A stretch of DNA of 64,000 nt from an uncultured Synergistia bacterium (GCA_964425005.1 CAYRKT010000001.1:77980-141979), one strand, 5' to 3'. Shown: positions 1,566 to 53,443, counted from the first letter of the stretch. The notes: generated by a model not told the origin, from the letters alone. Translations and numbers: made by a program.

Positions 1566-2771
1566 ATGCCCGGCAGCGAGTTGTTCGACGAGCAGGAGAT
1601 AGAGGCGCTGGCTGAGGTCATAAGGAGGAAGGTGGTCCACCGCTACGCCTTCCAGGCCGAAAGGGGTGGTAGGTACCTGGTGGAGGAGTTCGAACAGGCC
1701 GTAGCCCAGAGGTTCGGCGTGAAGAGGGCCCACGCGGTTTCCTCCGGGTCTGCGGCTCTGCTCGTGGCCATGAGGGCCTTCGGCCTGGGACCCGGGGACG
1801 AGGTCATAACCACGCCCTTCACCTTCGTAGCCAGCGTAGAGGCCGTGCTGGAGTGCGGCGCCATCCCGGTGCTGGCTGAGATAGACGAGAGCTTGAACCT
1901 AGACCCATCCTCGGTGGAGTACCTGGTGACTGAGCGGACTAAGGCCATAATGCCCGTACACATGTTCGGCTCTTGCGCCGATATGGATGCCATAACATCC
2001 ATAGCCAGGAAGCACGGGCTTTACGTCTTCGAGGACGCCTGTCAGGCTATGGGCGCCACCTACAAGGGACATCCAGCGGGGAGCATGGGTTACTTCGGCA
2101 CCTATAGCCTCGATCCCTATAAGGTGATAACTACCGGCGAGGGAGGCGTGATCACCACCAACGACGAGGACTTCTACAGGCGCTGCGAGTACTTCTCGGA
2201 CCACGGCCACGTCCACAACCACGCCATAGACAGAGGGGCCGAGGACAAGGCTTGTCTGGGCTTCAACTACAGGATGTCGGAGCTCCAGGGCGCACTCGGC
2301 CTGGTTCAGCTCAAGAAGCTCGACAGGGCTATCCAGCTCCTGAGGGAAAACAAGAGGAGGATATTGAACAACGTGGGGAAGATAGACGGCTTGAAGCTCA
2401 GGAAGCACGCCGATCCCGAGGGTGAGATAGCCACTCAGCTCGTCTTCATATTGCCCGACGCCGAATCCGCCAGGAGGTTCCAGAGGGCCTCAGCCCAGAG
2501 CGGGGCGCCCTGTGGGATACTGTCGAACAACCTCTGGCACTTCGTGAACAACTGGCAGCACCTGAGGGACAGGAGGACCTACGGCAGGAAGTGCCCCTTC
2601 GAGTGTCCCTACAACGAGGGCAGCTGGCCGACCTACAGGCCGGTGGAATACCCGCAGTCCACGGACGCCCTGAGCAGATCGGTGGTATACGGGCTCAAGA
2701 TCCTCATGAGCGAGCAGGAGATAGAGAGGATCTCAGAGGCGATCTCTAGGGCTGCCAAGGAGGCCCTCTGA
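1566..2771 (+). CDS. DegT/DnrJ/EryC1/StrS-family PLP-dependent aminotransferase
   Basis: N-terminal fold-type I pattern (..VSSGSAALLVAMRA..GDEVITTPFTFVAS..), lysine-containing segment SLDPYKVITTGEGGVITTND. GGAGGTGA RBS. Starts 30 nt after the alcohol dehydrogenase stop, so probably co-transcribed. Confidence 0.85.
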   Translation: MPGSELFDEQEIEALAEVIRRKVVHRYAFQAERGGRYLVEEFEQAVAQRFGVKRAHAVSSGSAALLVAMRAFGLGPGDEVITTPFTFVASVEAVLECGAIPVLAEIDESLNLDPSSVEYLVTERTKAIMPVHMFGSCADMDAITSIARKHGLYVFEDACQAMGATYKGHPAGSMGYFGTYSLDPYKVITTGEGGVITTNDEDFYRRCEYFSDHGHVHNHAIDRGAEDKACLGFNYRMSELQGALGLVQLKKLDRAIQLLRENKRRILNNVGKIDGLKLRKHADPEGEIATQLVFILPDAESARRFQRASAQSGAPCGILSNNLWHFVNNWQHLRDRRTYGRKCPFECPYNEGSWPTYRPVEYPQSTDALSRSVVYGLKILMSEQEIERISEAISRAAKEAL

Positions 2772-23227: not shown

Positions 23228-25930
23228 CTAAGGCCGATTTTTGCCGCAACAGTGCTTGTACTTCTTGCCGCTGCCGCAAGGGCATGGCTCGTTCCTGCCC
23301 ACCTTCCGCTCGACCCTAACGGGCGTCTGCCGGTGCGGAAGCTGCAGGGGCGCGTCTCCCCCCACCGCCACGACGCCCTCCGGAGCGGCCACCTCTCTGA
23401 CTCCGCCAGCCTCGGGCTTGAGCTCCACTCCCCTGGTGTGCCTCAGCTCGAGCGAGAAGGCCACCGATACGACCCTGGAGAGGTCGCTCCTCCACAGGAA
23501 CCCCACCACGTCCCTCTTTATCCTGAAGAGCATGTCCTGGAAGAGCCTGTAGGACTCGAACTGATACTCCAGGAGCGGATCCTTCTGCCCTATGGCCCTC
23601 AGGCCTATGCCGCGCCTGAGCTCGTCCATGGAGAGAAGGTGGTCCCTCCAGTGAACGTCCACGGTGTGGAGCAAGAAGACCCTGAGCAGCTGGTTGAGCT
23701 CGGCCCTGGGAAGCGAAGGGTCGTCGAGCTTTTGGAAGAGCCTGGACTTGTAGGAATCGAGCTTCGTCGAGATCTCACCCAGGTCTTCCGCGGAGGCCAG
23801 GGCGATAGTCTCCCCTATGGTGCTCTTGAGCGTCGAGGATACCCTCTCGACCATCTCCTCGACCCCCTCGTCCTCCTGGGGGGACAGAAGGCCTTCGAAG
23901 AAGTCCTCCACCAGGTCCTTGCAGTGGGAGAAGACCTCCTCGTCCAGGAGTATCCGCCTGCGCTCGGAGTAGACCACCTCCCTCTGCTTGTTCATGACCA
24001 GGTCGTACTCCAGCAGGCGCTTCCTGATCTCGAAGTGGAGGCTCTCGACCTTCTTCTGCGCCGACTCTATGGCCTTGGAGAGGAGGGGGTGCTCTATAGC
24101 TTCGCCCTCCTGGACGCCGAGCTTCTCCATGATGGACTTTATCCTCTCGCCCCCGAAGAGGCGAAGGAGGTCGTCCTCGAGGGAGAGGTAGAACCTGCTC
24201 TTGCCGGGATCGCCCTGTCTGCCGCTCCTGCCGCGCAGCTGGTTGTCTATCCTTCGAGCCTCGTGCCTCTCGGTGCCCAAGACGTAAAGTCCACCGAGCT
24301 CCACAACTCGCTCGCGCTCCCTATCGCATATCTCCTTGAACTCCCTGAGCAGGCGCTCGTGCTCGGGGCTTCCCAGCTCTATCCCCCGCCTCTCGCACTC
24401 CTCCCTGGCCAGGAAGTGCGGATTGCCCCCCAGTATTATGTCCGTGCCGCGGCCGGCCATGTTGGTGGCTATGGTGACTGCCCCCAGACGACCGGCCTGA
24501 GCCACTATCTTGGCCTCCTTCTCGTGGTACTTAGCGTTGAGGACCTGGTGAGGTATGCCCCTCCTCTTGAGCATGGAGCTCAGTAGCTCGGATGTCTCTA
24601 TGGAGGTGGTCCCCACCAGGATGGGCTGCCCCCTCCGGTGAGTCTCCACTATGTCCTCCACCACCGCCTCGAACTTCTCCCGCTTGGTCCTGTATACCAC
24701 GTCCGGCAGGTCCTGGCGGATCATGGGCTTGTGGGTGGGTATGACCACCACCTCGAGGCCGTATATCTCCCTGAACTCCTCGGCCTCCGTGGCGGCGGTG
24801 CCGGTCATCCCGGCCAGCTTCCTGTACATGCGGAAGTAGTTCTGAAGGGTTATGGTGGCCAACGTCTGGTTCTCCGAGCCTATCCTGACCCCTTCCTTGG
24901 CCTCGATGCTCTGGTGGAGCCCGTCGGAGTACCTCCTGCCGAACATGAGCCTCCCGGTGAACTCGTCTACTATGATCACCTCTCCGTCCTTGACCACGTA
25001 GTCCACGTCCCTCTTGAAGAGGTGATGCGCCTTCAACGCCTGGACTATCTTGTGGGCCATGTCGGAGGTGATGTCGTCGAAGAGGCTGTCCACCTTGAGC
25101 AGCTCCTCGCAGCGTCTGATGCCGGCCTCGGTCAGGACCACGTTCCTCTCCTTCTCGTCCACCTCGAAGTGGACGCCCCTCTTCAGGGACCTGGCCACCC
25201 TGTCGGCCAGGATGTAGGGCTCCACCGAGTCCTCGCTGGGACCGGAGATGATGAGGGGGGTCCTGGCCTCGTCTATCAGGATGCTGTCCACCTCGTCCAC
25301 GATGGCGTAGCTGTGCCCCCTCTGCACCAGCTCGTCCCTGGAGACCGCCATGTTGTCCCTCAGGTAGTCGAAGCCGAACTCGGCGTTGGTCCCGTACGTT
25401 ATGTCGCAGAGGTAGGCCCTCTTCCTCTCCTCGAAGGGCATGTGGGAGTATATCACCCCGACGCTCAAGCCCAGGAAGCGATATATGGGACCCATCCACT
25501 CGGCGTCCCTCTTGGCCAGGTAGTCGTTCACCGTGACCACGTGGACGCCCTCCCCGGTGAGGGCGTTGAGGTAGGCCGAGAGGGTGGCCACCAGCGTCTT
25601 GCCCTCGCCGGTCTTCATCTCGGCTATCTTCCCCTCGTGCAGGACCACGCCCCCCATGAGCTGGACGTCGAAGTGCCTCATGCCCAGCACCCTCCTGGAT
25701 ACCTCCCTCACCACCGCGAAGGCCTCCGGGAGGATCTCGTCCAGGGTCTCTCCCCGCTCGAGCCTGGACTTGAAGACCAGGGTCTGGGAGGCTAAATCCG
25801 AGTCCGACATGGGGATATACCGTTCCTCCAGGGAGTTTATCCTCTTGACCAGCTCGCGAAGCCTCTTGAGCTCCCTCTCCTGGGCGTCGAGGCCCAGAGC
25901 CCTCTTCAAAAATCCGAACAAGCGAACCAC
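23228..25930 (-). CDS. secA: Preprotein translocase ATPase SecA
   Basis: DEAD-like motor domains and C-terminal zinc finger [14 protein letters not shown]; 900 aa; GTG start. Confidence 0.95.
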
Positions 25931-26018: not shown

Positions 26019-27566
26019 GTGAATGGGTTGGGCGTAAAAAGGGCTTTGGTCTCCACCTGGGACAAGAGCGGGCTGGAGGAGCTCGCCTCCTCCTTTCGAG
26101 AGAGGGACGTGGAGGTGATCTCCACAGGAGGGACGGCTAAGGTCCTCCGCGGGATGGGGTGCACGGTGGTGGAGGTCGAGAGCGTCTCGGGCTTCCCAAG
26201 CCTCTTCGGCGGGAGGGTAAAGACCCTCCATCCCGCGGTCATGGGCGCCATCCTCATGAGAAGGGACTCGAAGGAGGACCTGTCGGAGGCCGACGCGCAC
26301 GGAATAAAGCCCGTGGACCTGGTGGTGGTAGATCTCTACCCGTTCGAGGCGGCCTCCGCCTCGGGCTCGCCGCTGGAGGAACTGGTGGAGAAGATAGACG
26401 TGGGGGGCGTGACCCTCATCCGGGCAGCGGCCAAGAACTTCGCCAGCGTGGCGGTGGTGGTGGACAAAGCCGACTACCCGAAGGTGGCCCAGCTCATAAG
26501 GGAGAGAGGAGAGATCCCCCTCGAGGTCCGAAGGGGCCTGGCGGTCAAGGCCTTCAGGAGGAGCTCCTTCTACGACGCCCTGATAGGGTTCGAGCTCGCG
26601 AGGCGCTTCGAGGAGGAGGTCATCCCGTTGTCCGCCGCCGAGATCTCGCTCCCCTTGTCCCTCGTGAGCGCCCTTCGCTACGGCGAGAACCCCCATCAGA
26701 GGGCCTCCCTCTTCTCCTCTCCTCTGAACCCGCCCCTGCGCGTGGAGAAGCTGCAGGGCAAGGAGCTCTCCTACAACAACCTCCTCGACCTGGAGTCCGC
26801 CCTGGTCGGCTGTCATCTGCTGAGGGAGAGGTGCGCCTGCGTTATCATCAAGCACAACCAGCCCTGTGGGATAGCCGTTGGGACCACCCCGAAGGAGGCC
26901 TACGCCAGGGCCGTAGAGGCCGACCCCGTGTCGGCGTTCGGCGGGGTGGTGGGCTTCACCAGAGCGGTGGACGGAGAGACGGCCGAGGAGGTAACTAAAT
27001 CCTTCAAGGAGGCCGTGGTGGCCCCGGACTACTCGAGCGAGGCCCTCTCGATCCTGAGGGGGAGGGAGAGGCTCTCGATCCTGAGGGCGGACCCAAAGGA
27101 CCTGAGGTCCAGGCCCTCCCTCAGGAACACCGTCTTCGGGATCCTCGTGCAGGAGGAGAGGGAGACGCCGATGCCGGCCCTGACCTCCATGAGGTGGGTG
27201 TCCGGCGACCCACAGGGGCTAGACGAGGAGTCGGCGGATGTGGCATGGGTGGCATCGTACCTCCTCAAGAGCAACGCCGTGGCCATCGCCAAGGGGGGCA
27301 GGACGGTGGGACTCTGCGGTGGGCAGCCGAACCGGGTCAGCGCCGTGGCCATAGCCCTGCAGAGGGCGGGCGAACTGGCGAGAGGTTCGGTGATGGTCTC
27401 GGACGGCTTCTTCCCCTTCCCCGACTCCATAGAGCTGGCGGCGGATTCCGGGGTATCCTTCGTGATCCAGCCCGGCGGGTCCGTGAGGGACGAAGAGGTG
27501 ATCGAGGCGGCCAGGGCAAGGGGTGTCGCCATGGCCATCACGGGGATCAGGCTCTTCAGGCACTGA
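26019..27566 (+). CDS. purH: Bifunctional AICAR formyltransferase / IMP cyclohydrolase PurH (true start may be TTG at 26028)
   Basis: MGS-like N-terminus KRALVSTWDKSGLEELA..ISTGGTAKVL and AICARFT domain; 515 aa. The AGGAGG at 26014-26019 is better spaced for the TTG at 26028. Confidence 0.9.
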   Translation: MNGLGVKRALVSTWDKSGLEELASSFRERDVEVISTGGTAKVLRGMGCTVVEVESVSGFPSLFGGRVKTLHPAVMGAILMRRDSKEDLSEADAHGIKPVDLVVVDLYPFEAASASGSPLEELVEKIDVGGVTLIRAAAKNFASVAVVVDKADYPKVAQLIRERGEIPLEVRRGLAVKAFRRSSFYDALIGFELARRFEEEVIPLSAAEISLPLSLVSALRYGENPHQRASLFSSPLNPPLRVEKLQGKELSYNNLLDLESALVGCHLLRERCACVIIKHNQPCGIAVGTTPKEAYARAVEADPVSAFGGVVGFTRAVDGETAEEVTKSFKEAVVAPDYSSEALSILRGRERLSILRADPKDLRSRPSLRNTVFGILVQEERETPMPALTSMRWVSGDPQGLDEESADVAWVASYLLKSNAVAIAKGGRTVGLCGGQPNRVSAVAIALQRAGELARGSVMVSDGFFPFPDSIELAADSGVSFVIQPGGSVRDEEVIEAARARGVAMAITGIRLFRH

Positions 27567-27575
27567 GGACCAGAC

Positions 27576-27872
27576 ATGAGAGGCAAGCTAGCTCTCACCC
27601 TGTTCTCGCTGCTGATCTGCGCCTGTCTCAGCCCTATGCCCTCGGGGGCAAGCGAGTGGAAGGAGGTGTTCCGGAGGGACCACGCGGTGTACCTCGTGGA
27701 GCTACCCCCCATCAGCAACGACTGCAGCTCGACTCAAGTCAGGGTGAGGATAAAGATCGAGGGGACGGGCTTCGAAGAGGAGCTGATATACCAGTTCAGC
27801 GAGGACGGCAAGCTCTACAGGAACCTGGACAGCGTCGTCAGGGCCTCCGACGGAGGCCTGGTGGAGACCTGA
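27576..27872 (+). CDS. Small exported hypothetical protein (signal peptide)
   Basis: MRGKLALTLFSLLICACLSPMPSGASEW.. hydrophobic signal sequence. Starts 9 nt after the purH stop with a GAGGA RBS; 98 aa. Confidence 0.5.
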   Translation: MRGKLALTLFSLLICACLSPMPSGASEWKEVFRRDHAVYLVELPPISNDCSSTQVRVRIKIEGTGFEEELIYQFSEDGKLYRNLDSVVRASDGGLVET

Positions 27873-27975
27873 ATAGTCATGTCCGGCTGGGCCTCGTGGA
27901 GGCCCGTGGAGGCGGGTAGCCCGGCGGAGGCCATATGGGAGGCGCTGAGGAAGAGGTGAAGGAGGGATCTCAAGC

Positions 27976-28479
27976 TTGGCCAGGGTAGTGATAACCACCA
28001 GGCAGGGAGACAAGGGTTTCACGAGGATAGGCGACGGTTCGACCCTGAGGAAGGACGACCCGAGGGTCGAAACCTATGGCGCACTGGACGAATGCCAGGC
28101 GGCGCTGGGCTGTGCGAGGGCTTTCTGCAGGTCGGAGGGGATCAGGGGAAAAATCCACAGGCTAGAGGAGGACCTGAAGTTCCTGATGGGATACATAGCC
28201 AAATACCCGGGGGTAGAACTCCCCCCCATCAAAACCCTGGAGGAGATGGTGGAGGAGGCCGTGAAGAGCTCAGAGGGCAGGGAGTTTAAGTTCCTCACCC
28301 CGGGGGAGAACCCGGTCGACGCCTTCCTCCACCTGGCGAGGACCATAGCTAGAAGGGCCGAACGGTGGGCGGTGAAGCTGCTCCTCGATGGGGAGATAGA
28401 CCTGGACTGCTACACCTACGTGAACAGGCTCTCCGACGCCATCTACGCCCTCGTGCTCATCTACGAGGAGGAGAAATGA
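27976..28479 (+). CDS. PduO-type ATP:cob(I)alamin adenosyltransferase
   Basis: ITTRQGDKGFTRIGDGSTLRKDDPRVETYGALDECQAALG matches the PduO/MMAB N-terminal signature (TKTGDKGETSL..KDDPRIEAYGTVDELNS). TTG start with AAGGAGGGA RBS; 167 aa. Confidence 0.8.
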   Translation: MARVVITTRQGDKGFTRIGDGSTLRKDDPRVETYGALDECQAALGCARAFCRSEGIRGKIHRLEEDLKFLMGYIAKYPGVELPPIKTLEEMVEEAVKSSEGREFKFLTPGENPVDAFLHLARTIARRAERWAVKLLLDGEIDLDCYTYVNRLSDAIYALVLIYEEEK

Positions 28480-28482
28480 AAA

Positions 28483-28569
28483 TGGTGCCGGAGGTGGGAT
28501 TTGAACCCACACGGGCTTCCGCCCACTACCCCCTCAAGATAGCGTGTCTGCCAATTCCACCACTCCGGC
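28483..28569 (-). tRNA. tRNA-Leu, anticodon GAG, type II, CCA encoded
   Basis: Manual fold: acceptor GCCGGAG/CTCCGGC, anticodon stem-loop CTATC-TTGAGGG-GGTAG (anticodon GAG), variable arm TGGGCGGAAGCCCGT, T arm GTGGG-TTCAAAT-CCCAC. Own TATAAT -10 at 28580-28585 on the minus strand. Confidence 0.8.
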
Positions 28570-28604
28570 ACGCGCAAAGATTATAAGGCCGAAGCACTCG
28601 CAAG

Positions 28605-29963
28605 TCAATAAGGACGAGGCCCTGGCGCCACAGCCTCGACCCTGACGCCCACCGAAGGGCAGTTCTCCTCCTTCAGGAACTTCGAGAGTTTCCTCGAGAG
28701 CTCCATCTGCCTGCGCCACTGGCCGAAGGCCATCCCCCGGGAGGTCAAGAGGTCCACCTCCCTCAGCAAGGCCGGTGGGATGGGCGAGAGGCTTTCCCGC
28801 TCGAAGGGCGTCTGAGGAAGGGGCATGAAGGCGTGAGCGTGGAGCTTGGCACCCATGGAGGAGAGGAGGCGCATCAACCTCAGGGTTTCCCTCGCGTCGT
28901 CCTCCTCCTCCCCGGGCAGGCCGAATATGAAGTCCACCCACACCTCGAAGCCGAAGTCCCTCGCCAACGCCACCGCCTCGACCACCGCGTCCGCCGTGTG
29001 CCCCCTCCTGCACCGAGCTAGCATCCTGGCGCTACCGCTTTGGGCTCCCATCACCAGCCTCCTGTTGTCGGCAAACCTCCTGAGCAGCGCCAGCACCTCT
29101 GGGCTTATCTGGTCCGGCCTGACCTCGGAGGGAAAGGAACCGAAGAAGATCCTACCCCCCTTGCACGCCTCTCTGAGGGAGGAGAGGAGCCTCTCCAGGG
29201 CCTCCAGGTTGACCCTAACCCCGTCGCTGGACCCATAGGAGAGGGCGTTAGGGGTTATGAACCGGAAGTCCCTTAAGCCCCTCGACGCCATCCGGGAGAC
29301 CAGATCGCAGATGAACTCCACGCTCCTGTGTCTTACGCGCCTGCCGAACATGTAGGAGGTCTGACAGAAGGCGCAGCCGTAGGGACAGCCCCTGGTTATC
29401 TCTATGGGGCCAAACCTTCCCAGGCTGAAGGAGACCGGAAGGTGAGCGTCCAGGTCTATGGCCTCCCCCGCCAGCTCGCCGCCGACGACCTCCCTCGCGC
29501 CGCCGAAGGCCTTCAGCACCAGTTCGTCCGCCGACCCAACTGGCTCGAGGTTGAGGGCCTCCCACAACCCCCTCAAGGCCCAGGGGAAGGATCGCTCTCC
29601 CTCCCCCACCATCGCCAGATGCGCCCCAGCCCTCAGGACGCTCTCCGGCAGCGCGGTGGCGTGAGGACCCCCCACCATCACCACGGCCCACTTGAAGCCC
29701 GCCCTGAGGGAGGAGATGAGCGGGTATCGATCGAACGCCTCGGTGGAGAAGGCGGACACGGCGACCCCAAAGGGGCGCCTCTCCCCCTCCAGGCGCTGGC
29801 AGGCCTCGAGCAGCCTCCTCTCGTCTCCCACCAGCTCGACCTCAAGCGCGCCCCCCAGGAGGCCTTCTCCCTCCAGCGAACCGAGGAGGGCGTTGAAGCT
29901 ATACCTGTGATCCCTGTCGCACAGACAAACGAGCGAAAAGCTCGTCCTCGAGGGACTAACCAT
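28605..29963 (-). CDS. B12-binding-domain / radical SAM domain protein (class B radical SAM, unknown substrate)
   Basis: N-terminal Rossmann-like B12-binding-type domain (..AVVMVGGPHATALPESVL..), then the radical SAM cluster motif ITRGCPYGCAFCQTSY (CxxxCxxC); 452 aa. Confidence 0.8.
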   Translation of the reverse strand: MVSPSRTSFSLVCLCDRDHRYSFNALLGSLEGEGLLGGALEVELVGDERRLLEACQRLEGERRPFGVAVSAFSTEAFDRYPLISSLRAGFKWAVVMVGGPHATALPESVLRAGAHLAMVGEGERSFPWALRGLWEALNLEPVGSADELVLKAFGGAREVVGGELAGEAIDLDAHLPVSFSLGRFGPIEITRGCPYGCAFCQTSYMFGRRVRHRSVEFICDLVSRMASRGLRDFRFITPNALSYGSSDGVRVNLEALERLLSSLREACKGGRIFFGSFPSEVRPDQISPEVLALLRRFADNRRLVMGAQSGSARMLARCRRGHTADAVVEAVALARDFGFEVWVDFIFGLPGEEEDDARETLRLMRLLSSMGAKLHAHAFMPLPQTPFERESLSPIPPALLREVDLLTSRGMAFGQWRRQMELSRKLSKFLKEENCPSVGVRVEAVAPGPRPY

Positions 29964-30038
29964 CTTCGGGTCCTTGTGGTCGCGCGAAGCTTGCTTATAA
30001 TATCATACTCGCATCTGCGACTCAGGAGGGATAAGGAC

Positions 30039-30698
30039 ATGGAGATCTTTCGGAGACACGAGAAGCTCTTGGACCTTCAAAGGCTTAAGAGCTCTTCGGT
30101 CCTGGTGGTGGGCGCAGGGGGGCTGGGATCGCCAGTGCTGGAGATGCTCTGCAGGGTCGGGGTAGGAAAGCTGGTGGTGGCGGAGAACGCCTCGGTGGAC
30201 GAGCCAGACCTAAACAGGCAGATACTCTACACCCGGGAGGACCTGGGCAAGAGCAAGCTCCGCAAGGTCGTGGAGAGGCTCAAGGGCATAAGGCCAGACC
30301 TGGAGATAGAGGCCCTCGAGCGAAGGGTGGACGAGGGCTTCGAGCTGCCTAAGGTGGACTGCGTCGCCCTATGCGTGGACAACTTCGAGACCAGGCTCCT
30401 GGTGGACGAGAAGGCTTCAGCCGCGGGGATACCGGTGGTGAACGCAGGCATCAAGGGGTACTACGGACAGGTGAACACCGTCCTCCCAGGGAGAACCGTC
30501 AACATGAGACGACTGTTCAAGAACGCGAGGACGGAAAGGGAGATCCCCGTCTATCCGCCCACCGCCCTGCTGGTGGGGACCCTCCAGGCCCACGAGGTCA
30601 TCGAGGTCCTGCTGGACAGACCACAGCTGGCCGGCAAGATGTTGATAGTCGACCTGCTCAACCTGTCCTTCGAGGTGATACCCCTGATGCCCGAATGA
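30039..30698 (+). CDS. ThiF/MoeB/HesA-family E1-like adenylyltransferase, stand-alone (no rhodanese domain)
   Basis: VLVVGAGGLGSPVLEMLCRVGVGKLVVAENASVDEPDLNRQILY is an E1 nucleotide-binding signature. ATG at 30039 with AGGAGGG RBS and a TATAAT at about 29993-29998. The six-frame ORF from 29328 carries a spurious N-terminal extension. Confidence 0.8.
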   Translation: MEIFRRHEKLLDLQRLKSSSVLVVGAGGLGSPVLEMLCRVGVGKLVVAENASVDEPDLNRQILYTREDLGKSKLRKVVERLKGIRPDLEIEALERRVDEGFELPKVDCVALCVDNFETRLLVDEKASAAGIPVVNAGIKGYYGQVNTVLPGRTVNMRRLFKNARTEREIPVYPPTALLVGTLQAHEVIEVLLDRPQLAGKMLIVDLLNLSFEVIPLMPE

Positions 30699-48547: not shown

Positions 48548-49480
48548 ATGCCCGGGAGCGAACCATACAGGACCTGGAGCTCTTACCTGCGGGAGAGGTT
48601 CGGAAGGAGGGTCCACAAGGTCTCTCTGGACGTGGGGGCCACCTGCCCCCACAGAGACGAGGACGACAAAGGACTAGGGGGCTGCGTCTTCTGCGATCGA
48701 AGAGGGGGCGGTAGCGGGGCTTCCCTGAGGGGCGAATCCCTCGAGGAACAGGTCGAGAGGGGGGCTACCTTCGCCGTCTCCAGGTTCAAGGCGCAGGCCG
48801 TGATCCTCTACCTCCAAAGCTACACCCCGACCTTGCTCAGCGCTTCGGCCCTGGAGGAGGCTGTGGAGAGGGCTCTCTCGGCGGCAAGCAGGCTCTGCCC
48901 CGTGGTGGGGGTATCGGTGGCCACGAGGCCTGACACGCTAAAGGAGGAACACATCGACCTCCTCCTGCGGCTTCAGGGCCGAGGGCTGGAGGCGTGGGTC
49001 GAGGTGGGTGCGCAAAGCCTCTGCAGCAAGAGCCTGCTTTGGCTGAACCGCCGCCACGGCGTGAGCTCCACGATCAAGGCCTTCAGGATGCTATCAGAGG
49101 CGAGGATAAAAAGCTGCGCCCACGTGATCCTCGGGATACCCGTGGAGGAAGAGGAGGAGACTGTGGACTCGGTGGTCTCCCTGAGCCTGCTAGGGGCCAT
49201 CTCCTTCAAGTTCCACCCTCTCCACGTGCTCAGGGGGACACCCCTCCACCAGATGTTCCTGCGGGGGGAGTACGTCCCCCTCGCCATGGAGGACTACATA
49301 AGGACCCTGTCCCTGTGCATCTCCTCCCTGCCGGAGGAGGCCATAGTGCAGCGCGTATCCGCTGAGGCACCACCCGATCTGCTGGTGGCGCCCCAGTGGT
49401 GCCTCCAGAAGCAGAACGTGATAAAGGCCCTCAGGGACTACATGAGCTCCAACGGCCTAAGACAAGGGTCTAGACGCTAG
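48548..49480 (+). CDS. Radical SAM protein, TIGR01212 (YhcC-like) family
   Basis: VSLDVGATCPHRDEDDKGLGGCVFCDRRG cysteine motif typical of this family; 310 aa. A TATAAT at 48531-48536 lies only about 12 nt before the ATG, so the transcript may be near-leaderless. Confidence 0.8.
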   Translation: MPGSEPYRTWSSYLRERFGRRVHKVSLDVGATCPHRDEDDKGLGGCVFCDRRGGGSGASLRGESLEEQVERGATFAVSRFKAQAVILYLQSYTPTLLSASALEEAVERALSAASRLCPVVGVSVATRPDTLKEEHIDLLLRLQGRGLEAWVEVGAQSLCSKSLLWLNRRHGVSSTIKAFRMLSEARIKSCAHVILGIPVEEEEETVDSVVSLSLLGAISFKFHPLHVLRGTPLHQMFLRGEYVPLAMEDYIRTLSLCISSLPEEAIVQRVSAEAPPDLLVAPQWCLQKQNVIKALRDYMSSNGLRQGSRR

Positions 49481-53345: not shown

Positions 53346-53443
53346 TGGCGGAGGCGTGTGGGAATCGAACCCACCGGGAGCCGCCGAGGCAACCCCCCAC
53401 TGGATTTGAAGTCCAGGACACCCACCAGGACATATCCGCCTCC
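53346..53443 (-). tRNA. selC: tRNA-Sec (selenocysteine tRNA), anticodon TCA, about 98 nt with long variable arm, CCA encoded
   Basis: Anticodon arm CTGGA-CTTCAAA-TCCAG is identical to E. coli selC; long extra arm TGGGGGGTTGCCTCGGCGGCTCCC; T arm GTGGG-TTCGATT-CCCAC; discriminator G + CCA; acceptor GGAGGCG(G)/(A)CGCCTCC with a G:A at the 8th pair. Confidence 0.75.

Follow-up and report, generated by a model that had tools for sequence, protein, structure and literature searches.

A stretch of 64,000 nucleotides from an uncultured Synergistia bacterium (GCA_964425005.1 CAYRKT010000001.1:77980-141979), called the window here and numbered from its first letter, carries between purH and ribF a run of genes (27576-30698) that could easily be taken for a single system: a small orphan protein (p98), a 26-codon open reading frame (ORF26), a PduO-type adenosyltransferase, a tRNA-Leu, a protein of the radical S-adenosylmethionine (SAM) type and a stand-alone ThiF-type E1 enzyme. 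Our analysis suggests, with a probability of about 0.65, that separate transcription units, whose housekeeping-type functions are unrelated to one another, have come to lie side by side here in this lineage alone, and that p98 and ORF26 among them are most simply one gene. The genes listed in an earlier note on this DNA are all present; the tempting “E1 plus B12 radical SAM” system that the note had built from them can be struck off as false. Were it not for a candidate selenoprotein gene missing from the annotation and an E1 left orphaned, the region would be unremarkable.

Every gene call that we have seen splits the probable single gene at a UGA codon. If selenocysteine is indeed inserted there, the locus would add a new exported selenoprotein family from an uncultured lineage and would show how orphan selenoproteins without cysteine homologues escape standard pipelines.

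A probable single gene interrupted by UGA

The p98 frame, 98 codons long, occupies 27576-27872 on the plus strand with its TGA at 27870-27872, and ORF26 (MSGWASWRPVEAGSPAEAIWEALRKR; 27879-27959, plus strand) starts 6 nt past that stop in the same frame (...GAG ACC TGA ATA GTC ATG TCC...). Read on from the UGA, the frame continues for 28 codons (27873-27959), ORF26 included. The 26-codon frame had been recognized before, and its existence stands; the coordinates given for it then, 27877-27957, were 2 nt too low.

These 28 codons look translated in the p98 frame. Their GC content at third codon positions (GC3) is 0.89, against 0.82-0.88 in the genes and 0.38-0.60 in three spacers, and their codon-usage log-likelihood of -3.55 per codon lies beside a true-gene median of -3.61. 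In this segment the p98 frame outscores the other five by about 7 log units; of 44 gene stops across the window, the only others with a similar coding signal behind them are those where a genuine in-frame gene follows. The UGA at 27870-27872 is conserved in all three available versions of the sequence, which represent two lineages. Relative to the diverged one (L040), the extension has a proportion of synonymous differences (pS) of 0.46 and of nonsynonymous differences (pN) of 0.13, a ratio of 0.29 that may be set beside the 0.22 of purH (pS 0.36), with the caution that the statistics for the extension come from some 17-20 differences between two lineages. Purifying selection is seen on the frame; the start codon of ORF26 is not conserved, its ATG being GCT in L040, where the UGA is retained, the first start codon is a GTG 12 codons past it, and all three changes before that GTG are synonymous in this frame. 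It is more likely, then, that p98 and ORF26 are one gene interrupted by UGA than that they are two separate substrates or partners of the neighboring enzymes, as the earlier note had proposed.

The upstream part of this gene encodes a protein that is predicted to be exported. Its N-terminus has the features of the signal peptide that had been attributed to it (positive charge, a hydrophobic core some 14 residues long, and an S-x-A site), and these features are kept in a relative of 64% identity despite the divergence of the sequence. Beyond this, p98 is an orphan: neither p98 nor the 127-aa fusion product, with C put in place of U, matches any Pfam or NCBIfam family; a word-index search of 5.8 billion proteins returned homologues in two clusters only, at 96% and 64% identity; the additional matches from an exhaustive HMMER search were repetitive or of low complexity, and spurious; and a scan of metagenome contigs yielded no homologue. 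AlphaFold models p98 as a small antiparallel beta sheet (predicted local distance difference test score [pLDDT], 73), for which a fold search found no match in the PDB.

A rather unlikely alternative, though the best placed of those considered here, is that ORF26 stands on its own as a small gene or a leader peptide, beginning at the ATG at 27879 after an ordinary UGA stop and coupled to the weak TTG start of pduO. The coding-like frame fits such a gene; the ATG has a possible Shine-Dalgarno sequence, GGAG, 12 nt upstream; the stop codon (27957-27959) abuts the pduO ribosome-binding site; and in-frame adjacency has a probability of 1/3 by chance, with four such junctions in the window. The loss of the ATG in L040, where no start appears until the GTG and the intervening changes are synonymous, is difficult to accommodate, and the hairpin that lies at the correct distance for recoding (described below) would be left unexplained.

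Less likely again is the possibility that 27873-27975 is untranslated, with conserved GC-rich hairpins on either side of the p98 stop serving as RNA stabilizer, processing site or regulator of pduO and the coding signal arising as a by-product of base composition or of an antisense frame. In its favor, 27835-27965 folds better than 200 of 200 shuffles (z = -3.27). Nucleotide-level constraint is also suggested by a block just upstream (27779-27875, plus strand), made up of the last 31 p98 codons and the UGA, in which 96 of 97 nt are identical between this lineage and L040. No synonymous change occurs there over 21 synonymous sites, with 7.6-9.7 expected from the pS values of purH and the extension; in the 5′ half of p98, identity to the L040 counterpart is no more than about 55%. 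Such a block could be a recombination tract, could have arisen when co-occurring strains were assembled into a mosaic, or could be an element acting at the nucleotide level just upstream of the UGA. A further point for an untranslated segment is an antisense frame (27815-27973, minus strand; 2249-2398, minus strand, in L040) that shares its third codon positions with the sense frame; it is open in both lineages, and one gene caller annotates it on L040. As a place where the coding signal could originate, it weighs against translation of the extension too. Codon usage and substitution ratios nevertheless favor the sense frame, by the 7 log units given above and by 0.29 against 0.52 for the antisense, and no U-tract terminator or Rfam match accompanies the hairpins. 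Synonymous divergence past the UGA is as high as in purH, so the extension is not frozen at the nucleotide level.

A candidate SECIS hairpin and the case for selenocysteine

Continuation of the p98 frame through UGA might be explained by selenocysteine (Sec) insertion. The consensus model of Zhang and Gladyshev for the bacterial selenocysteine insertion sequence (bSECIS), as summarized in PMC13188914, describes a loop of 3-9 nt containing G followed by G or U, an upper stem of 4-16 bp, a distance of 16-37 nt from the UGA and a folding energy of -7.5 kcal/mol or lower. Downstream of the p98 UGA, at 27888-27906 on the plus strand, lies the hairpin UGGGCCUC-GUG-GAGGCCCG, with an upper stem of 8 bp, an energy of -13.3 kcal/mol and a loop 23 nt from the UGA; the loop has 3 nt, or 5 nt (C-G-U-G-G, fitting N1-G-[G/U]-N-N2) when its closing C-G pair is included. 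The hairpin falls within each of the four limits set by the consensus. As background, 3.7% of all 1582 TGA triplets in the window satisfy a perfect-stem implementation of the same test, and 1.1% do so at -12 kcal/mol or lower. Among the 24 genes that stop at TGA, p98 alone is followed by a SECIS-like hairpin (0 of the 23 others).

Conservation of the structure is best seen in the upper stem, which is intact in L040. A lower stem proposed by alifold (27877-27881 with 27905-27909), in which the change from ATG to GCT gives one compensated and two half-compensated pairs, is given little weight because single-sequence folds prefer other lower stems. A long-range pairing of 27842-27853 with 27921-27932 was considered as a conserved structure as well and set aside, being weakened by two changes in L040.

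The organism itself appears equipped for recoding. A tRNA-Sec gene with anticodon UCA lies in the window at 53346-53443 on the minus strand, found by ARAGORN and scoring 77.9 bits with RF01852 against a gathering score of 47, which implies that UGA is decoded as selenocysteine in this organism. The gene adjoins tsaE, tsaB and a flavodiiron-type gene; selA, selB and selD are not apparent among the window's open reading frames, most of which were read by eye and not scanned against family models.

Under this proposal p98 and ORF26 would form one gene comprising a signal peptide, a domain of about 75 aa folded as a beta sheet, the UGA (Sec) and a Trp-rich tail of 28 aa. Recoding of the UGA by the hairpin 23 nt downstream would give a 127-aa exported selenoprotein with Sec at residue 99 and an amphipathic tail, and the stop codon used after readthrough would fall on the ribosome-binding site of pduO. 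The arrangement resembles that of bacterial selenoprotein genes with an intragenic SECIS, for which E. coli fdhF is the paradigm, in that an in-frame UGA is flanked by coding sequence on both sides and followed by a bSECIS-fitting hairpin, with tRNA-Sec present here. It differs in that p98+ORF26 falls in no known selenoprotein family, has no CxxU/UxxC-type motif, and, as an orphan protein that is exported, would carry its Sec within the C-terminal quarter.

Several observations weigh against selenocysteine. Single-sequence folds pick differing lower stems in the two lineages, and the local 56-nt fold is no better than that of shuffled sequences (z = -0.72). The Rfam SECIS families give no match. 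No homologue has Cys at the UGA position, the family consisting of three versions from two lineages that all have UGA, and neither a redox motif nor a conserved partner Cys is seen near it. Balancing these points against the hairpin and the tRNA, we consider Sec insertion at the UGA at 27870 a serious candidate whose chances fall somewhat short of even. As a tentative extension of the same idea, p98+ORF26 might found a new lineage-restricted family of exported selenoproteins, carrying a signal peptide or a lipoprotein signal; translation of pduO might be coupled to Sec insertion, and the stretch shared between the lineages just before the UGA, about 97 nt long, might act as one more recoding or regulatory element.

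Gene order does not point to a single system

The most ambitious interpretation of the interval unites the radical SAM protein, ThiF, PduO and the small frames in one maturation module, either of the type that makes ribosomally synthesized and post-translationally modified peptides (RiPPs) or one for cofactor or tRNA sulfur, with p98 or ORF26 as substrate or partner. We regard this as very improbable. Its attractions are that the genes are adjacent, that the divergent arrangement of the radical SAM gene and thiF about a 75-nt spacer is kept in one close relative, that this ThiF has lost the upstream ThiS gene of its relatives and could have been rewired, and that PduO and the radical SAM protein are both related to cobalamin.

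Comparative genomics gives a different picture. A scan of GTDB species genomes provided 27 orthologous loci of TIGR04013, the family of the radical SAM protein, with flanks of up to 6 kb per side (some contigs being shorter), from Thermodesulfobacteriota, Desulfonauticus, Elusimicrobia, Sumerlaeota, Holophagales, Nitrospiraceae, Bacteroidales, Myxococcales, Asgard archaea and Bathyarchaeia. In none of the 27 was a homologue of ThiF or of PduO found near TIGR04013, whether by tblastn, with a ThiF profile hidden Markov model (HMM) or, in the case of PduO, by phmmer; a control locus from the same species gave a positive result in the tblastn and in the HMM/phmmer tests. All-against-all clustering of the open reading frames at these loci revealed no universal neighbor; such synteny as there is stays within clades (murI, argD and dapB in Thermodesulfobacteria, other genes in Asgard archaea). 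From the opposite direction, no radical SAM gene lies near thiF in any of six ThiF relatives outside the lineage. The two genes are therefore companions within this lineage only, and the maturation pair proposed earlier finds no support. Measured by the test that the earlier note itself had set, the separation of the two genes elsewhere goes most of the way to refuting the module.

The proteins and the layout of their genes argue in the same direction. This ThiF is a bare 219-aa adenylation domain without an N-terminal peptide-binding extension, and the divergent spacer (29964-30038) contains indels and no open reading frame; nothing, then, points to a RiPP system. The gene for PduO and the radical SAM gene run toward each other, and tRNA-Leu with its own promoter lies between them. 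Radical SAM methylases of class B rely on methylcobalamin generated in situ and not on the adenosylcobalamin that PduO would supply. Finally, the radical SAM and ThiF proteins are cytoplasmic, unlike p98, which is predicted to be exported.

Some evidence does run counter to a mere juxtaposition. In the sole close relative available, the order radical SAM-thiF-ribF and the -10 box of thiF are kept; at 82% nucleotide identity, inherited synteny explains this equally well. Lineage-specific functional recruitment of neighboring genes could have occurred, and the link between the cobalamin genes pduO and radical SAM, though not conserved, could be real.

An accessory island inserted next to tRNA-Leu, as had been suggested from the position beside a tRNA gene and for which only that position and the orphan status of p98 speak, is scarcely credible: with GC at 0.60-0.67 throughout the region, GC3 at 0.82-0.88 in these genes and in the flanking purH alike, no integrase among the window's open reading frames and no att-like repeat of the tRNA-Leu 3′ end (the sole repeat being the other tRNA-Leu gene), the region was not inserted at the tRNA, and it is flanked by the core genes secA and purH on one side and ribF, truB, rbfA and infB on the other, with the purH-p98 order kept in the diverged relative.

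The radical SAM protein and the TIGR04013 family

The radical SAM gene (28605-29963, minus strand) encodes a 452-aa protein with a B12-binding-type domain. Classification with HMMs upheld the earlier guess of the MJ_1487 family and agrees with a class-B-type enzyme: TIGR04013 scores 388.2 bits against the NCBI cutoff of 251 and covers model positions 4-382 of 382, PF04055 scores 88 bits, and the B12-binding domain PF02310 is marginal at 33.1 bits against a cutoff of 32.1. The CX3CX2C cluster motif is formed by C193, C197 and C200 and is invariant across 31 aligned TIGR04013 members. Like those members, the protein combines an N-terminal Rossmann-type domain with a radical SAM barrel and this motif, and it is 40-46% identical to proteins from Thermodesulfobacteriota, Dictyoglomaceae, Thermodesulfovibrio, Methanocaldococcus and Asgard archaea. 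No structural difference from the family was seen, although the present copy is the most divergent found; its closest relative outside its own species, among the same 5.8 billion proteins, is 45% identical. The corresponding search for ThiF gave one relative at 89% identity and then 46%. The lineage that carries this radical SAM and ThiF pair is poorly sampled.

Experimental work on TIGR04013, a family without demonstrated function, was not found in the literature, where the sole mention is a guess that MJ1487 is BzaE-like, made from homology alone and without support (PMC11742838). The archaeal lipid radical SAM enzymes Gms, Gmm and Ted were considered as identities for the family and rejected: Gms is of the SPASM/Twitch type, and the papers on these enzymes make no mention of TIGR04013.

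The nearest characterized relative, by sequence and by fold, is MgmA (QCMT, TIGR04014), a radical SAM enzyme that depends on B12 and methylates the alpha carbon of a glutamine in methyl-coenzyme M reductase (MCR) (PMC11796369, PMC9401015). TIGR04014 is the second-best family of the present protein, which at 112.6 bits does not reach its cutoff of 360, and the best sequence match in the PDB is 9CCB, which is MgmA (PMC11796369), with an E value of 5e-26. An AlphaFold model (pLDDT 88.9) likewise finds its best fold match in 9CCB (template modeling score 0.65-0.69, 24% identity) and also superposes on TsrM, CysS, OxsB, TokK, AprD4 and MiaB. The two-domain architecture is shared with MgmA; the differences are a score far under the TIGR04014 cutoff and a bacterial host with no MCR in evidence. 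The wide occurrence of TIGR04013 in non-methanogens implies that its substrate must differ from that of MgmA.

By analogy with MgmA, the enzyme may act as a cobalamin-dependent C-methyltransferase, an assignment that we offer tentatively. It would cleave SAM reductively at a [4Fe-4S] cluster and then methylate an unactivated carbon by way of methylcobalamin, in the manner of MgmA, whose target is an unfolded peptide, and its substrate would probably be an unfolded protein or another macromolecule. The presence of two non-cobalamin enzymes, AprD4 and MiaB, among the structural relatives and the marginal PF02310 score weigh against this. TIGR04013, the sister family of the MCR glutamine methylase, is widespread in anaerobes and thermophiles of both bacteria and archaea, and it has no conserved genomic partner; identification of the substrate should thus come from biochemistry or phylogenetic profiling and not from analysis of the neighborhood.

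An intact E1 apart from its presumed carrier

On the other side of the divergent spacer, thiF (30039-30698, plus strand) encodes a short E1 adenylyltransferase of the ThiF/MoeB/HesA type. The 219-aa protein is a stand-alone E1 as described before: PF00899 (171 bits) is its only domain, and rhodanese and CxxC motifs are absent. It falls under every equivalog cutoff (PRK08328, 145 bits against 339; UbaA, 127 against 450; TIGR02356, 127 against 275; MoeB, 118 against 449; TcdA, 38 against 304). The catalytic machinery is nevertheless complete, since all 22 invariant columns in an alignment with 14 relatives (15 members in total) are retained, as are GxGxxG, the arginine finger in NRQ and the aspartate in DN..R. 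The zinc CxxC motifs are absent from bacterial members of the short clade, this ThiF included, and present in archaeal members.

What sets this gene apart is its surroundings. In all six relatives outside the lineage (39-46% identity; the named sources are a Synergistetes metagenome-assembled genome and Pseudothermotoga), a gene of 93-97 aa abuts or overlaps the start of thiF, and where these small proteins were read they end in ...GGG or ...SGG, as do ThiS/MoaD-type carriers. The thiF gene studied here is separated from the ThiS-like gene that stands beside thiF in every relative examined, and no credible ThiS/MoaD-like gene exists in the 64-kb window, as judged from a scan for open reading frames ending in GG and from tblastn with three ThiS-like neighbors; the earlier observation that no such gene is adjacent thus extends to the whole window. 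The likeness to ThiS-ThiF and MoaD-MoeB pairs lies in the length of ThiF and its lack of CxxC motifs, which match Thermotogota and Synergistota-type relatives; the differences are the missing partner and the failure to reach the ThiF, MoeB, UbaA or TcdA cutoffs. Judging by the six relatives, the protein most likely acts on a carrier ending in Gly-Gly and, as an intact short E1, would adenylate the C-terminal Gly-Gly of a ThiS/MoaD-type sulfur carrier encoded elsewhere. Functional analogues among short E1-carrier pairs include Thermus TtuC/TtuB and archaeal UbaA/SAMP.

Two of the loci with a ThiS-ThiF pair (L044, 3710-7045; L045, 3083-6442) have, after the pair, genes for a protein of about 441 aa with a transglutaminase core, a 48-49-aa open reading frame and a 4Fe-4S protein, and before it an M42 peptidase. 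This gene set could be a ubiquitin-like conjugation and deconjugation module.

The spacer at 29964-30038 carries a TATAAT (29996-30001), in keeping with the 75-nt divergent arrangement noted earlier, and a thiF ribosome-binding site, AGGAGGG (30024-30030). Both elements are conserved in the close relative, in which ThiF is 89% identical and the DNA 82% identical over 2.4 kb. Indels of 8, 3 and 2 nt separate the two spacers; the segment thus encodes no peptide, and the search for a precursor peptide that had been recommended here ends without a conserved open reading frame. The 2-nt indel in the relative breaks an alternative 235-aa start at an upstream TTG used by some gene callers, so the ATG at 30039 is the true start of thiF. 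The 3′ ends of the convergent genes thiF and ribF overlap by 41 nt (30658-30698), an overlap of equal length in the relative (L034, 1962-2002).

pduO, tRNA-Leu and the wider window

The pduO gene (27976-28479, plus strand; 167 aa) begins at a TTG behind the ribosome-binding site GGAGGG at 27961-27966. Membership of the adenosyltransferase family is confirmed by full-length matches to TIGR00636 (111.4 bits against a cutoff of 108.45) and PF01923 (127.5 bits), in agreement with the earlier description of a PduO beside the radical SAM gene, and from the known function of the family the protein is expected to adenosylate cob(I)alamin. It differs from other PduO-type genes in standing alone, with no pdu, eut or cob context, and in its apparent co-transcription with purH and p98; purH-p98-pduO would form a tightly packed plus-strand operon. 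Upstream of pduO, Rfam searches at gathering thresholds and at E values up to 5 detected no riboswitch or other known RNA, the only hits being tRNAs.

The tRNA-Leu(GAG) gene (28483-28569, minus strand) has, directly upstream, a promoter-like site, TTGACT-17-TATAAT (28580-28608, minus strand), that fits the sigma-70 consensus at 11 of 12 positions and shares nucleotides with the radical SAM gene's stop codon; the tRNA would be transcribed from this strong promoter of its own.

The chromosomal context is bacterial (secA, purH and nusA-infB-rbfA-truB-ribF). On the left lie secA (23228-25930, minus strand) and purH (26019-27566, plus strand); on the right, from 30658 on, ribF, truB, an nrnA-like DHH gene, rbfA, DUF503 and infB follow on the minus strand. 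Metagenome contigs of up to 158 kb carry exact copies of the locus with identical gene order. Another radical SAM gene, at 48548-49480 on the plus strand (N-terminus ...VGATCPHRDE...), appears unrelated to the present locus; judged from its N-terminal sequence alone, it may encode a small tRNA-modification protein of the MnmL/YtqA type.

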